This document shows, one piece after another, positions 8,215 through 41,874 of a stretch of 41,874 nucleotides of DNA. Origin of the DNA: a virus (lineage: Duplodnaviria; Caudoviricetes); the IMG/VR virus record IMGVR_UViG_3300009678_000089, positions 1 to 41,874 of that record; one strand, written 5' to 3'. Made by a program: the position numbers and the translations under genes. Numbering within the stretch: the first letter of the stretch is position 1; each line of letters opens with the position of its first letter. The notes under the pieces are model-generated. The model had not been told where the DNA came from. It was given only the letters and a program-made list of their open reading frames with translations, and did not search any database.

Positions 8215-9692
8215 CAGTCCCCACTACGGTAGGGTCAACTACAGCATATGTTGGTGGCGTTGGCACGATGTCGCTATCTCGTGCAACTGCTAATGCGGTG
8301 ACTGGTGATGTTGTATTAATCGCCAGTACGAGCATTACTGTTGGCACCACGATCTTCGATTGCACTAACGCCACATTTGTCACCATTTCTCCGGCAGCGG
8401 TAATGGGTACTAGAACGTGTCAGGTTATCGCACGGTATGTTGAGGCTGGCGATCCGGCTTCATATATCTGCGGCACGGGCGCAACGAGTACGGGTAAAGT
8501 TGGGCTAATGATAACTGTGCGGGGTAGTGGTATTACTTCGCAAGCTGAGTTGTCTAAGATTATTAAAGGGCCGTTGGGGCTTAGGAATGTAACTGGTACG
8601 GTATTAACGAATGTGGCAAATGGGGTTGTAACGCCAGAGAATGATTCATTGGTGCTAACTGCTTCATTTGAGGCGACTACTGCGAATGAGACAGTTACGC
8701 CCGTTTTTTCAGGCGGCGCTACACTCGTAACTTGGTCCACTACTGTATTGGGCGCCACACAAGTTGAGACAGTTCTTTGGGGTAGTAAGTCACAACTTCT
8801 ACCTAGCTTGACTTCCGCTGATACAATTACGTATCAGAATAACCAGTCGGCTACAAATGGTGCTGCGGTTCAGATTGCTATTCCGCCACCAGCATTCATT
8901 CCAAATACTCCAGCGCTTTTAACTCAATTTGGAACTGACCCGGCTATGGCGTCTGGAACGACCGAAGTTATTACCGTTCCATCAACACTGCCAGTTGGTA
9001 CACTAGTTGTCGTTGGCTTTGTCGGGATCGCTGCACTAAACCCTACCTTCACAATCGCCGATTCCGTTACGCCCGATAATACCTGGGTGATGTCAACTGC
9101 TCAGTTAGCAGGGTTTACGACTAACATCGTTCTATTCTCGAGTGTGCTGACCACTGCTTTGCCCGCTGGAAGCACACTAACAATTACCTCGAGCCAATCA
9201 ATGTCGAGACGATGTTCAGCGGTCGCTGCATTTAACAATCCATGTACTGGCAGTATTACGCATGGTGCATTTAACGAAACCTCTGCGACAATCATTTCCG
9301 GTGGTTCTCATACGCCCGCTGCCGACTCATTAGTATTCGGGGTGTTAGGTTTCAACTCTGCCGGCCGAGTATTCACCCCAGACCCAGGATGGACTGCTTA
9401 TACTAAACATCTGTCTACAGTTGGGTCAGGTGAACGTAGTGTTCAATTGGTCGCTAGATCCGGTGTTGCGGCTACGCCATTTGCGCGAGTCGGGCTAATT
9501 GATAGTAGCGGCGTTATGCTTTGCGGTTTAGGTTCCGCTGTTCTCGGAGCTCCTCCATCTACAGGTTGGATTCCCGGTGTAATGAAATACTGGGATGGTA
9601 CAGCTTGGATCACGCCGTCACCAACCGCTATTAAATATTGGGATGGAACAGCATGGCAACAAGTCCCTGCTATTAAGGTATGGCAGCCATAA
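8211..9692 (+). CDS. putative receptor-binding/fibre protein (Thr/Ala/Gly-rich, two similar beta domains, KYWDGTAW x2)
   Basis: ATGA overlap with the upstream gene at 8211; composition; duplicated terminal motif. Confidence 0.65.
   Translation: MTVPTTVGSTTAYVGGVGTMSLSRATANAVTGDVVLIASTSITVGTTIFDCTNATFVTISPAAVMGTRTCQVIARYVEAGDPASYICGTGATSTGKVGLMITVRGSGITSQAELSKIIKGPLGLRNVTGTVLTNVANGVVTPENDSLVLTASFEATTANETVTPVFSGGATLVTWSTTVLGATQVETVLWGSKSQLLPSLTSADTITYQNNQSATNGAAVQIAIPPPAFIPNTPALLTQFGTDPAMASGTTEVITVPSTLPVGTLVVVGFVGIAALNPTFTIADSVTPDNTWVMSTAQLAGFTTNIVLFSSVLTTALPAGSTLTITSSQSMSRRCSAVAAFNNPCTGSITHGAFNETSATIISGGSHTPAADSLVFGVLGFNSAGRVFTPDPGWTAYTKHLSTVGSGERSVQLVARSGVAATPFARVGLIDSSGVMLCGLGSAVLGAPPSTGWIPGVMKYWDGTAWITPSPTAIKYWDGTAWQQVPAIKVWQP
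9585..9656 (+). repeat. 24-bp imperfect direct repeat encoding KYWDGTAW twice
   Basis: aaatactgggatggtacagcttgg (9585-9608) vs aaatattgggatggaacagcatgg (9633-9656); only synonymous differences. Confidence 0.85.
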
Positions 9693-17368: not shown

Positions 17369-18499
17369 ATGACTAGTTTTGGTATGGACCCGGTTGGGTA
17401 CGTTAAGAGGAAAATTGGGTGGGTAGATGCTGAACAGGTAAAGCAGCCGAAGAAGCAGACTTACAGTAAGCCTGCGCCAAAAAGCACAATGACCAATTTG
17501 CAGATTCAGCAGCAAGCTTGGGATAAGGCTGCGAAAGCGTATATGACAGGGCAGAATAATTGGAACCAGAATGCAACGATGGGCGTTAACGCTGCCCTTG
17601 CGATGCAGGGTCCAGAGCGCTATCAAATGCGTATGAATCAATTGGATGCGCAGAGGGATGTTGAACGAGCCAATCTTCAAGCTGCGTCAACTGGTGGTGC
17701 TGGAACTCGTGCTAATGAGATTGCGGCATTGGAGTACAGACTAGGGCAGGAGAACGCGAAGGGGGATATGGCGTCAATCCTGCGTGCGTCTGCGCTTAAA
17801 GATCAACTTTTGGCATTGCGTAATCAGGAGCGTGAAGGTAGCAAGGGTTTGATTACTCAGGCAATGAGGCAGGCCGAGGCGTCTAAGAATGCGAAAATGC
17901 AGGGCAATGAGTTGGGCCGGAAGGAAGCCAATCTCAATGCAAAGATGAATACAGAGGGTATTCGGTCGAATGCGACTGGCAACTTCTTTGCACCCGGTCG
18001 CTTGATGGAAGAACAAGCCCAGACAGATATCCTGAGTAATGCGTTGGCTAATTACGGTCTGGCGGATGACGAGCTCAATCGTGAATATGCTGGGTACATT
18101 CGGGATGCTGAGGAAAAGATTAACCAGATTACTCGTGACCTTCTCGCTGATACGGGTAAGACAAATGAGGAGAGGGAACAGGACGCTGAGAAGATCCGGC
18201 AAATTCAGCGTGGGCAGGAATTGGCATTTGCTCAGATGAATGCTGCGAAGGCCGGTAATAATGATGCTTCTCAGATGGCTAAATGGAATGCTGCTGTGGC
18301 CGCCAATAGGGCAAATGAGCAGAAGTTCTACACTGCGCTGGTTAATAACTCTAAGGATCAGCAAGCTTGGATTCAGGGAATTGCAGCCGCTGGTAATCAG
18401 CCAAAGCCACCACCACCAGCTAGGCCCGGTGCTGGCGTAAAGGTTCCGACTTCTGCTGCACAACGTAAACAACAACTCGCCGCCAGAAAGAATAGGTGA
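17369..18499 (+). CDS. internal virion (DNA ejection) protein
   Basis: Ala/Gln/Asn-rich helical protein after the adaptor; podovirus synteny. Confidence 0.55.
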   Translation: MTSFGMDPVGYVKRKIGWVDAEQVKQPKKQTYSKPAPKSTMTNLQIQQQAWDKAAKAYMTGQNNWNQNATMGVNAALAMQGPERYQMRMNQLDAQRDVERANLQAASTGGAGTRANEIAALEYRLGQENAKGDMASILRASALKDQLLALRNQEREGSKGLITQAMRQAEASKNAKMQGNELGRKEANLNAKMNTEGIRSNATGNFFAPGRLMEEQAQTDILSNALANYGLADDELNREYAGYIRDAEEKINQITRDLLADTGKTNEEREQDAEKIRQIQRGQELAFAQMNAAKAGNNDASQMAKWNAAVAANRANEQKFYTALVNNSKDQQAWIQGIAAAGNQPKPPPPARPGAGVKVPTSAAQRKQQLAARKNR

Positions 18500-34364: not shown

Positions 34365-34509
34365 TTGTCTCCTCCTTTTCCAATTCGCGGTGCGGGCCGT
34401 CATAGACCTGGTAATTCAATGCATGTTTATGGCAGTAATACTCGTCGTATTCAGTGTCCACTACAACGGCGGGGTTTAAGCACACGTTGCACTTTCGTTT
34501 CTGCGGCAT
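34351..34509 (-). CDS. small zinc-finger protein (52 aa, MPQKRKCNVC...YCHKH), missed by the ORF track
   Basis: GGAG RBS; CxxC...CxxH; translated by hand. Confidence 0.7.
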   Translation of the reverse strand: MPQKRKCNVCLNPAVVVDTEYDEYYCHKHALNYQVYDGPHRELEKEETNGQP

Positions 34510-34548
34510 GTAATTAACTCCAATCAATTCTCATTTAATCCAATAGAC

Positions 34549-34603
34549 AACAATAGGCCCCGATCGGTCCTAAATTAATAGGACCAATCGGAGCCGTATT
34601 GTT
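34549..34603 (-). terminator. long imperfect hairpin downstream of the acidic-tail gene
   Basis: ~24-bp stem whose + strand C-A mismatches become G-U pairs on the minus strand. Confidence 0.65.
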
Positions 34604-34697
34604 CGGGGCTTAACCAATTACTTACTCACTGTGAATGCTGTGACATTAGCAGAAAGATTAGCAACGTGGATAAGGACACCCCGATTATGGACAATGA

Positions 34698-35150
34698 TTA
34701 CTCGTCGTCATCGTCATCATCATTGTCATCGGAATCGTCGTCGAGATCATCGTAATCTTCATCGTCATCATCATCGTCGTCGGTTTCGGTTGCGCCATTC
34801 TCCGCAGCCTTTTCCGCACGCTTTGCACGACGCTCTTCCTTCTTAGTTTCCCGAGCGTCAATCTCATCTTCCGTCATTGGGCGGAATGTATTGGAATCCT
34901 TCTTGATAATCAGAATGTACCGATCATCCTTTTCCGGGTGCTCATCGTAGTGAACTTCAATTCCGACGAAGTTATACTCACCACGAACCTTAGTCCTAGC
35001 TGCCTGAACACTAGCCTCAGAACTGTACTCACGAATTCCGTAATACTGGTCATCTACCGGAACCTCGTTAACCAAATTCATAATTACAGGTGTTGCGCCA
35101 GGACGCTTAGTCTTTCGTGGCACATAATTCTCGAGCCGGGTCAAAGCCAT
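34698..35150 (-). CDS. hypothetical protein with a basic helix and a ~27-residue poly-Asp/Glu tail
   Basis: ORF with its own promoter, structured leader and downstream hairpin. Confidence 0.8.
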   Translation of the reverse strand: MALTRLENYVPRKTKRPGATPVIMNLVNEVPVDDQYYGIREYSSEASVQAARTKVRGEYNFVGIEVHYDEHPEKDDRYILIIKKDSNTFRPMTEDEIDARETKKEERRAKRAEKAAENGATETDDDDDDDEDYDDLDDDSDDNDDDDDDE

Positions 35151-35196
35151 TGTTATTCCGTCATCTTTCTGGGGTTAAGGGATGTTTATAATTTTA

Positions 35197-35345
35197 GTGG
35201 CGGGGGATAACCGCCAGGATAACCGTAGAATTAGCCTCGGAGGTAAAGAGGATTAAACCTCGGAGGGTAACCGGGGAGGTTATCCTGCCGAATATTTCCG
35301 GGGGAATCATGCCAGAAATTCCCGGCGATCTATCCCCCACCACGT
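35197..35345 (-). ncRNA. candidate ~150-nt structured RNA or 5' leader (sRNA-3)
   Basis: Closing stem 35197-35209/35331-35343 (G-U only on the minus strand); inner stem 35215-35224/35278-35287; begins just after a promoter. Confidence 0.6.
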
Positions 35346-35350
35346 CCTGA

Positions 35351-35379
35351 ATACTAGCAGGTATATACGGTCAAAGCAA
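35351..35379 (-). promoter_or_regulatory. promoter
   Basis: TTGCTT, 17 nt, TAGTAT with extended TG. Confidence 0.7.
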
Positions 35380-35450
35380 ATCGAATGTCTAAGTCCCCGG
35401 TAAATGGGAGGAATTCCCACCATCGTTAGGGGCACCTAACATTCGGCCGT

Positions 35451-35735
35451 CTATGCTAGCACGATAATTTCTGGCTCGATGATTACCAATTGGGAATAGA
35501 GTAGATCATATTCCGCTGGGTCAAGGATGGCTTCAAGTTCCTGGAGTTTCGATTGGAGATTGTAGCTAAGAGGGTTGCTGTTCCAGAGCTCGATGAATTC
35601 AGTAATGGCATTGTCTGCGTCCATTGGATTGACAACTGGGCCTTGAATTGTTGCTACGAGTTGTGCTGCGGCTTCATCAGCGGCAGTAGCGTAGGCATTA
35701 ATGCTTACTGATCCGAACGGCGGTAGGTCTGACAT
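35451..35735 (-). CDS. acidic hypothetical protein
   Basis: GAGGAGG RBS; abuts the upstream stop. Confidence 0.75.
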   Translation of the reverse strand: MSDLPPFGSVSINAYATAADEAAAQLVATIQGPVVNPMDADNAITEFIELWNSNPLSYNLQSKLQELEAILDPAEYDLLYSQLVIIEPEIIVLA

Positions 35736-36647
35736 TTAATCCTCCTCAGTTACTTCGTAGAATGTTTCTCTCATGCTTGCCTCTGCCCGAATTCTATCAA
35801 TGATTTGCTCACTGCATTCTGGTGCTGCCTTCTTCAATCGGCGTAGTGATTTCTGCTGGAGTTCTACATAATTATAGCAGGCGCCTAATGCGTGCCCAAG
35901 ATTATCAATAGCTGCTTCCAATCTTTCTTCCAAAATGCGGGTTATTCCGGGCAGTGGAATGTCAGGGAGATTATCTGGTTTTAATGCACGTCGTGCATCC
36001 TTCAAAGCCTTAAAGCGTTCATCAATGAGTACGGCATATGACTGCTCCTTAGCCGCCTCATTGAGATCCTTCATTAACCTAAGCTGTTCGGTACACAATG
36101 CTCGAGTATCTGCGTCCATTGAATCTAGAATCCCTTTACGTAGGAATTCGGCCATTCCATGTACTAATGCAGTACGGAGAACATCTTGACTGGAAAAGAA
36201 AACACCCTGCTCACCATTAATCTCAGCATTAGCGATTAGTTTAGCCAATGAGTTTAATGGTGCGGGGTGATAGATTCTAAGACCGTCTGCTGTTGTGGTT
36301 ATTTTCGCTAGGTCAGATGCCCAACTTGCTGTTCCCTTTTCAATATCTAGTGTTAGGAATGGAGCTAGGTAGGTGCTATGTCCATGAACATCTTGAGTTG
36401 GTACTTCCATTTTCCAAGGAGTATCAATAAAGTCATCAGCATGAGCTCGTAGCTTATCTGCCATTTTCTGCGGGTTAGTCTCTCGCAGAATTTGCTTGAT
36501 GCCTTTCTGCTGCGTCCTTTTTCTCTCATGTTTACTAGTGCCCCACCCACCACCGTCTTTATTGGTGGAAGGTAGGGCAATAATTCCGTCTGGCAATTCG
36601 AGTTGTGTTTCAGCTTCGTCGTCGTCATCGCCATTGGCTGATGGCAT
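35736..36647 (-). CDS. hypothetical protein (~303 aa, helical C-terminus)
   Basis: ORF 35736..36716; start likely at ATG 36647 after GGGGAAAGG; own promoter. Confidence 0.75.
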   Translation of the reverse strand: MPSANGDDDDEAETQLELPDGIIALPSTNKDGGGWGTSKHERKRTQQKGIKQILRETNPQKMADKLRAHADDFIDTPWKMEVPTQDVHGHSTYLAPFLTLDIEKGTASWASDLAKITTTADGLRIYHPAPLNSLAKLIANAEINGEQGVFFSSQDVLRTALVHGMAEFLRKGILDSMDADTRALCTEQLRLMKDLNEAAKEQSYAVLIDERFKALKDARRALKPDNLPDIPLPGITRILEERLEAAIDNLGHALGACYNYVELQQKSLRRLKKAAPECSEQIIDRIRAEASMRETFYEVTEED

Positions 36648-36788: not shown

Positions 36789-36918
36789 ATGGTATTAATT
36801 TGGTAAAGCAATAGTATGAATTAATGCCCCGACATGCGTTATCCGTATATCCGTGCCTCAGAACCACGGATATAGGGATAACGCATTACTAGATATTGGT
36901 TTACCAAATTGATACCAT
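36789..36918. repeat. nested ~130-bp imperfect inverted repeat
   Basis: Outer arms 36789-36813/36894-36918 (23/25 match); inner arms 36834-36855/36865-36886 (21/22 match). Confidence 0.9.
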
Positions 36919-38990: not shown

Positions 38991-39059
38991 AATTCCTCTT
39001 TCCATTTAATGTCGGACATGACAGTACCCCGATTACCATTACAGTAACCGGGGTACTAT

Positions 39060-39331: not shown

Positions 39332-39424
39332 TTAGAAGTAGAATTTGTACAACCTATACAGCGTGTAAATCACGAGGCATAAGAGTATTCTATTCCAGTC
39401 GATTACTACTGTCGTTGTATTCAT
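39332..39424 (-). CDS. 30-aa hydrophobic peptide (MNTTTVVIDWNRILLCLVIYTLYRLYKFYF)
   Basis: AAAGAGGA RBS; follows a promoter and leader hairpin. Confidence 0.6.
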   Translation of the reverse strand: MNTTTVVIDWNRILLCLVIYTLYRLYKFYF

Positions 39425-39520
39425 TTATCCTCTTTACGATAGGTTGGGGGATGATGCACCGATTTCCCAAATGGTATCACACCGACATAGAACACCGATG
39501 CACCATCCCCATTGAGTATT

Positions 39521-39549: not shown

Positions 39550-39698
39550 TCGGTAGGGAGGATATAACGAGAATGTTCGTCCAATTACCCAGGGAGTTAG
39601 AACCTACTGTCTATTCACAAGATGGTATCACGCCCACAATTTCGCAGTGGGCCGCACTAGGCTTAAGACCTATTTATACTCGCCTAGTCGAGTGTGAG

Positions 39699-40391: not shown

Positions 40392-40405
40392 ATCGTCATC
40401 CTCTT

Positions 40406-40588
40406 TCATAGCTCGAATACTTCCTGTGCTTTCCTGCCCCGACCATTCCCAGCTTTCTTGACAATTTCATCGGTACGCATTCCACGCTCCCATTGGGTAA
40501 TGGTAACTGTGCACTCATTAATTGGAACCTTTGGCGGAGCGTATTCTTTCTCGAGTTTCTTGTCAACAATTAGGTCGAGGCTATTCAT
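40406..40588 (-). CDS. hypothetical early protein
   Basis: Tightly packed ORF. Confidence 0.65.
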   Translation of the reverse strand: MNSLDLIVDKKLEKEYAPPKVPINECTVTITQWERGMRTDEIVKKAGNGRGRKAQEVFEL

Positions 40589-40986: not shown

Positions 40987-41149
40987 TTCATCCTCTCTTT
41001 GGTCTTACTAACTAAGGGTCGGATATCTAGCTGGCATTGGAATTAATTTTAATCAATTAATCTGAGCGTAGATATGCCGAAAGGCTAGACCCCGTAGTTG
41101 GAGTCTAGCCTTTCCGCCCATCATTCTCGCGATCATTTGAGGTTGGATT

Positions 41150-41347: not shown

Positions 41348-41417
41348 TTCATTCCTCTTTCTGTCGGTTGAATTTCGGGAGGGTTATTGGGGGAGGTTTC
41401 CCTCCCCCGAATTTCCC

Positions 41418-41810: not shown

Positions 41811-41874
41811 GGTATTTCCTCTTTCGGTTTGTTCGGCCGGTTTGTTCCGACAGGGATCATAGTAGCAGGTTCTA

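Follow-up and report, generated by a model that had tools for sequence, protein, structure and literature searches.

A structured phage RNA whose predicted open loop is complementary to the ribosome sites of likely early genes: a candidate antisense leader

The minus strand of an uncultured freshwater phage carries a real and well-formed structured element, a fair candidate for a small RNA, whose one open loop is complementary to a motif repeated at the ribosome-binding sites (RBS) of genes that are regarded as early from their position. This loop-RBS complementarity is unlikely to be due to chance within the genome. The explanation that we prefer, tentatively and on the basis of modelled folds and duplexes, is that of an antisense RNA, probably an mRNA leader, which would damp the translation of the early genes.

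The window, that is the whole stretch of DNA analysed, is a complete viral record of 41,874 nt. Its plus strand carries the terminase, portal, major head and endolysin genes, and its minus strand carries helicase and Sak4-like genes together with many small genes of no assigned function. The phage has no close relatives; the top helicase homologues are 38-47% identical. Four DNA runs of freshwater or freshwater sediment, from four studies, contain short identical pieces of it, and two of these four runs cover the structured element, with no variants in those pieces. No RNA run is listed as containing the phage, a result that tells in neither direction. An actinobacterial host is suggested, because the relatives are GC-rich with GAAAGG-type sites.

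Fold, promoter-like box and transcript layout

The features around the element are given below in the direction of the minus strand.

35385..35445, minus strand: hairpin after the 94-aa gene, just 5' of the promoter, likely the end of the upstream operon (z -2.9)
35351..35379, minus strand: promoter-like box, TTGCTT (35379-35374), 17 nt, TAGTAT (35356-35351), with a TG extended -10; from the sequence and a pattern count, predicted start at ~35345-35343
35197..35343, minus strand: structured RNA, with P1 35343-35324 paired to 35215-35197 (19 bp, one bulge), P2 35323-35302, P3 35301-35288 and the long arm P4 35286-35216
35245..35256, minus strand: open apical loop UUAAUCCUCUUU, 12 nt, on stem 35261-35257/35244-35240; predicted to be the sole accessible anti-RBS site
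34698..35150, minus strand: 150-aa acidic-tail gene, downstream, likely co-transcribed with the RNA
34556..34595, minus strand: terminator-like hairpin of 17 bp, predicted to close a likely transcript of ~790 nt

The stretch 35197-35379 folds at -78.7 kcal/mol (z -5.94), with none of 200 shuffles equally stable, and the 149-nt element at -75.1 kcal/mol beats all 1392 windows of 149 nt sampled in 60-nt steps (best -65.4). G-U pairs point to the minus strand as the folded strand, on which the fold starts 7 nt past the extended -10 box. The original prediction had described a long rod; the very stable fold stands, but the predicted shape is a four-way junction made of a closing helix, two short hairpins and one long arm. 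Nearly all stem pairs have a probability above 0.9, with weaker values only at junction and bulge pairs, and of the 177 structures within 3 kcal/mol the eight that were sampled all have one topology. The alternative pairings that had been taken to suggest a switch are thus replaced by a single dominant topology, and we found no competing folds tied to a terminator or ribosome site, as a riboswitch or attenuator would have.

The GAGGU/ACCUC stem proposed to present the loop was recovered at its place in the long arm, and opening UUAAUCCUCUUU is predicted to cost 0.44 kcal/mol. Three CCUCC motifs are present as claimed, but they are buried in stems (5.2, 7.3 and 5.4 kcal/mol to open), and the stretch resembling the 16S tail, once read as an exposed mimic, is also buried in a stem, where ACCUCCCC would cost 7.4 kcal/mol to open. 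Because the motifs and the 16S-like stretch are buried, the RNA would be single-site and not multivalent; and because it is the complement and not a copy of a Shine-Dalgarno (SD) site, it would act as an antisense and not as a decoy. The earlier idea of a multi-valent SD decoy was therefore given up.

With ~150 nt and its 5' and 3' ends paired in a long closing helix, the element could also be a protein-binding mimic, similar to 6S/Ms1, Y, SRP or CsrB RNAs, which we count among the least probable readings. 6S and Ms1 RNAs form a long duplex with a two-sided central bubble, and sponges of the CsrB/RsmZ type expose several GGA motifs in loops. Here the four-way junction has no two-sided central bubble and no unpaired 3' strand, and none of the three hairpin loops contains an exposed GGA. 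A search of Rfam over 34500-36000, at E values up to 10, returned no match to the families that had been named as candidates (6S/Ms1, CsrB-like) or to any other, and ARAGORN detected no tRNA-like module in the element.

Two exact copies of CCTCNGAGG flank the loop and occur nowhere else in the genome, and these near-palindromes, 23 bp apart, could be tandem operators, or the element could be an origin hairpin, acting in both cases at the DNA level. We see a very slight chance of this. The copies lie ~80-110 bp downstream of the promoter, the G-U pairs favour one strand, the RNA stem itself requires the repeat, and copies with one mismatch are below chance (7 vs 13.5).

The box TTGCTT-17-TAGTAT, proposed as the promoter, is present with its TG extended -10 and is one of eight genome matches, four per strand, to the pattern TTG...TGnTAnnnT; its -35 matches at only 3 of 6 positions, and a sigma-70 scan did not list 35351-35379. 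In another part of the window (36789-36918), nested long inverted repeats with 25-nt and 22-nt arms, AT-rich and with z ~ -11, stand before a 326-aa ORF and overlap a second TTGCTT promoter-like box; this is a candidate origin or operator region.

A GTG lies at the predicted start of the element, 7 nt after the -10 box, and its frame stays open to a stop just past the closing helix, so that a leaderless 49-aa ORF (35343-35194) or a leader peptide may be encoded, with the fold controlling its own translation. This is very improbable, as the GTG is paired within a GC-rich helix of 12 bp and the corresponding element of the nearest relative, called G010 here, gives no similar peptide.

There is no U-tract 3' of the fold, and only beyond the 150-aa gene does the next terminator-like hairpin (34595-34556) occur; a ~790-nt transcript, possibly processed, would thus probably have the RNA as its leader. 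To that extent the earlier proposal of a regulatory leader for the acidic-tail gene holds; the loop, however, forms only a weak duplex with the start of that gene (-4.9 kcal/mol). The same layout gives rise to the main rival of the antisense reading, unlikely in our view, in which a plain 5' leader acts in cis to protect or tune the 150-aa mRNA, as a 5'-end stabiliser or processing site, and the tag match is chance or secondary. Besides the missing U-tract and the distant terminator, it is favoured by a closing helix that begins at the predicted 5' end. Yet the fold stops 46 nt before the 150-aa start codon, that start region stays unstructured, no alternative fold is seen, and the place of the reversed tag in the loop would be left unexplained.

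The proteins neighbouring the element are without family match. The 150-aa protein shows weak membership (best E 0.026) of a small family found in related phages, and its predicted small alpha/beta fold has no clear match in a fold search (best Z 4.3), which speaks neither for nor against a role as RNA chaperone. Large searches with the 150-aa and 94-aa proteins gave no homologues, the two non-self matches being long repetitive proteins. A second structured stretch (34600-34690, minus strand) lies between the 150-aa gene and its terminator.

The start tag and its pairing with the loop

The motif AAAGAGGA has six copies in the genome against 1.37 expected, a number reached by none of 100 shuffles. 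All five minus-strand copies sit 3-7 nt 5' of a start codon within the last 3 kb of the record, which bears out the claim that the loop complement is the RBS of five genes, early by position; the sixth copy is reversed and forms the loop of the RNA. In a count that made no use of the loop, no 8-mer of the 7.3-kb early region ranked above AAAGAGGA once Asp-codon repeats were set aside. A host with an altered 16S tail fitting the tag was considered and rejected, as canonical-type sites are also present in the phage and a search with one variant pattern gave no matches in genome contigs.

The predicted partners of the loop are the following.

35734..35748, minus strand: ribosome site and start of the 94-aa gene (35735-35451), directly upstream; best predicted partner genome-wide, 14-15 contiguous bp including G-U
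41817..41824, minus strand: AAAGAGGA ribosome site of the 130-aa gene (start 41810); predicted target, 8 bp
41353..41360, minus strand: AAAGAGGA site of the 65-aa gene (start 41347); predicted target
40990..40998, minus strand: AGAGAGGAU site of the 71-aa gene (start 40986); predicted target, 9 bp including one G-U
40398..40406, minus strand: AAAGAGGAU site of the 99-aa gene (start 40391); predicted target, 9 bp
39427..39437, minus strand: GUAAAGAGGAU site of a 30-aa hydrophobic ORF (39424-39332); predicted target, 10-11 bp
38994..39001, minus strand: AAAGAGGA site of the 85-aa gene (start 38990); predicted target

The strongest predicted partner, the start of the 94-aa gene, had been missed by the original prediction, whose list also lacked the site of the 71-aa gene. 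Third-best genome-wide is the start of the 30-aa ORF at 39424, which has the longest Watson-Crick match to the loop region; the perfect 11-nt match reported at 39427-39437 is real, but it uses two stem bases. Five of the predicted target sites offer 8-10 bp only, and the site of the 94-aa gene is predicted to cost 4.9 kcal/mol to open; both count against the antisense reading.

Other features were noted among these genes. The 30-aa ORF (39332-39424, minus strand) consists of one hydrophobic stretch followed by basic residues and resembles small membrane peptides. Some 200 nt upstream of it, between early genes, lies a pistol ribozyme (39626-39693, minus strand; Rfam RF02679, 64 bits, E 1.6e-9), the sole Rfam match in the window, which would cut the early transcript. 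A hairpin after the first early gene (41387-41416, minus strand) is 74% like part of the long arm of the RNA over 27 nt.

Among start lists curated by eye, duplexes of -10 kcal/mol or better with the 14-nt loop region are predicted for 8 of 18 early starts, 2 of 11 in the replication module and 3 of 17 in the structural arm, while 3.75% of random early windows (n=400) reach this value. Only one in 1000 loop shuffles, and one in 511 GC-matched 14-mers, pairs as well as the loop with the 18 early starts. Pyrimidine-rich loops in general pair somewhat with purine-rich ribosome sites. The chance of finding one given 8-mer in the 86 loop positions of 27 stable hairpins is ~1e-3, or nearer 1e-2 when the choice of motif is allowed for, and across ~250,000 windows many chance cases would be expected.

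Pairing of this kind is known from the 6C (B11) sRNA of high-GC Gram-positives, in which, according to the available text of the source, a pyrimidine-rich loop needs no chaperone to pair directly with many mRNAs at their ribosome sites, and pairing over the ribosome site represses (PMC6486639). The element resembles 6C in having a pyrimidine-rich hairpin loop complementary to the ribosome sites of many mRNAs, and the predictions (0.44 kcal/mol to open the loop, 8 of 18 early starts) agree with such a mode of action. In contrast to 6C, a host RNA with C-run loops for G-rich sites, it is phage-encoded, has a four-way junction and a single C/U loop with no C-runs, and this loop fits the phage's own tag; the 6C family model gave no Rfam match to E 10. 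The c4 antisense RNA of P1 and P7 is likewise a structured phage RNA, with loops that pair near the ribosome site of a phage mRNA, and controls one antirepressor mRNA in immunity, as far as the accessible part of the source describes it (PMC12197685). As in c4, the best predicted site here is in an adjacent gene, but c4 has one antirepressor target whereas one loop here fits at least seven separate starts. No match to C4 was obtained in Rfam.

On the antisense reading, transcription would begin at ~35345 behind the likely promoter, and the predicted stable scaffold would hold its one 12-nt loop open. Read-through into the 150-aa gene would make the RNA an mRNA leader acting in trans, unless it acts as a processed piece. 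The loop would pair with the GAGGA-type ribosome-binding tag of likely early genes, starting with 8-10 bp in the loop and extending on the 94-aa gene to 14-15 bp over the ribosome site and start codon. Initiation would then be blocked at the tagged sites, and the early genes may be damped as a group as infection proceeds. No RNA chaperone need be assumed for this, as with 6C RNA.

The same pairing could have the opposite effect. The RNA might act on the tagged mRNAs as an adaptor, by which they are opened, stabilised or marked, given that a private tag at ribosome sites could serve selective translation and that the available text on a comparable phage motif, the start-associated sequence (SAS), leaves its function open (PMC3203893). 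We regard activation as very unlikely, because the pairing covers the ribosome site itself, which is repressive in 6C RNA in the text available (PMC6486639), the tagged sites are predicted to be already open (1.1-2.8 kcal/mol), and no ribosome-recruiting part is seen in the RNA.

It can also be supposed that the element is a broad anti-SD RNA directed against host mRNAs in a translation shut-off, the phage sites being bystanders. CCUCUUU could pair with the canonical SD via one G-U, and the loop ranks fourth among 77 intergenic loops against the canonical SD. This reading is distinctly unlikely: the U and A-U bases of the loop suit the phage AAAGAGGAU tag better than the canonical site, and an RNA of this kind would be expected to leave the phage's own sites alone.

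Homologue searches and the element of the nearest relative

Helicase- and capsid-based searches collected 2, 35, 3, 35 and 80 loci, partly overlapping, the last being 80 of 111. Neither the element nor its G010 counterpart had a BLAST match among 50,697 phage records. A covariance model built from a single sequence, and so of little power, recovered only the element itself in the window and 37 related loci, the next match having E 2.7 (locus L114), and none in 20 whole records. The loop pattern was found in 98 stretches of viral contigs, about the chance number by a rough estimate, none of them similar by nhmmer. The stem-loop pattern matched 1 of 24 related records, against two control matches, and a pattern common to the RNA and the G010 element retrieved six stretches, G010 itself and five unrelated ones. 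At the L114 match (8735-8900), a structured gap with a T-loop-like hairpin lies 1.1 kb upstream of the helicase gene.

G010, the nearest relative found (capsid 62%), has a 91-nt fold where its early genes end; a TAnnnT box precedes the fold by 7 nt, and a convergent ORF faces it. The fold opens with GUGG, the same opening as the RNA element, closes with CCAC and carries a 12-nt anti-SD loop, CACUCCUUUCUA. Its topology is unlike that of the RNA element and its fold is weaker (z -3.85, 1 of 200 shuffles equally stable); Rfam returned no match. Against G010's own curated starts, the G010 loop fits better than the loop of the RNA element in 11 of 11 cases, while the latter fits the 18 starts of its own phage better than the G010 loop in 10 and worse in 7. 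The G010 loop is close to a generic anti-SD, which also agrees with a host shut-off. The G010 element has no adjoining downstream sense gene, and this speaks against the cis-acting leader. G010 is one analogue and does not amount to covariation, neither within the RNA nor between its loop and the tag.

Beyond G010, hairpin scans of related loci picked out two hairpins in L182 and one in L198, all perfectly paired and GC-rich with a C/U loop, besides a weak one in L212; the intergenic hairpin-loop scan undercounts, as its ORF mask hid the G010 element. The hairpins of L182 (11600-11690, plus strand; ~17700-17790, minus strand) and L198 (11030-11080, plus strand) are likely terminators. A ribosome site 12 nt downstream of one L182 loop is complementary to that loop, and the second L182 copy follows a T-arm-like hairpin.

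The Cluster K parallel and its meaning

Pope et al. described in Cluster K mycobacteriophages a 13-nt SAS of unexplained function, with one reversed copy in four K1 phages; the available text of that paper leaves open whether its partner is RNA or protein, and describes no hairpin at the reversed SAS (PMC3203893). In Angelica (39.6 kb) we found 17 forward matches and one reversed match to the SAS (<=2 mismatches); the latter forms the 10-nt apical loop that tops a long hairpin of the mRNA-sense strand. This intergenic hairpin region matches 194 records, many without an annotated gene there. The parallel with the element is close in several respects: in both systems a repeated tag marks the ribosome sites of non-structural genes, a lone reversed copy lies away from starts, and here as in Angelica this copy serves as the apical loop on a long hairpin that follows a promoter-like box. 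Here too the tag is over-represented, stands 3-7 nt before starts (5/5) and has one reversed copy. The SAS, which in a subset of cases has extended inverted repeats upstream, however has 13 nt and 11-19 copies, against 8-9 nt and five exact copies here, and its hairpin has no sequence relation to the RNA element.

Among 16 Cluster K records picked across the identity range, the exact anti-SAS loop is present in 6, a variant with two central mismatches in 3 and neither in 7. The hairpin stems covary, with 11 of 31 pairs changing on both sides (0 of 500 shuffles; 12 sequences), in a test that leans in favour of the structure, which was derived from the same alignment of 12 of the 16 records (ShedlockHolmes, LeMond, Larva and Nergal were left out). 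Marshawn has 10 SAS copies in ~19 kb and no anti-SAS loop, and Unicorn 9 copies in ~19 kb with the variant loop; loop and tag therefore do not change together there. The persistence of the Cluster K leader where the anti-SAS loop is lost is a point for the cis-acting protective leader. In AnnaSerena, for which a SAS is described in the accessible text of the source (PMC7302621), no reversed site was found in the 36.7 of 56.7 kb examined.

In its own right, the Cluster K region is a conserved, covarying multi-hairpin non-coding RNA (locus L294, 38500-38700, or Angelica 58499-58699; loci L295-L310), downstream of a TTG-17-TAGACT box. Two Cluster K leaders gave no match in Rfam, and the hypothetical gene annotated over the RNA in some records is probably spurious. 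Late transcription of Adephagia appears, in the available text of the source, to start in this hairpin gap (PMC11373665).

Loop-mediated blocking of ribosome sites is well known from host sRNAs and single-target phage antisense RNAs. In the main texts of the open-licence literature and of bioRxiv, we found no paper on a phage RNA that addresses its own early-gene set via a shared start tag. It can be speculated, as a doubtful possibility, that phages give a whole class of their early mRNAs a private motif at the ribosome site, and that one antisense loop, carried by the leader of a later transcript, silences them all. On this view one RNA-timed early-to-late switch would exist in independent versions, as the RNA element, the element of G010 and the late-leader hairpin of Cluster K, of which the last would supply the partner that the SAS still lacks. 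If true, phage development would have a timing device built of RNA only, and the question of the binding partner of start-associated sequences would be answered; the Cluster K parallel makes the idea testable in a cultured phage with a harmless laboratory host.
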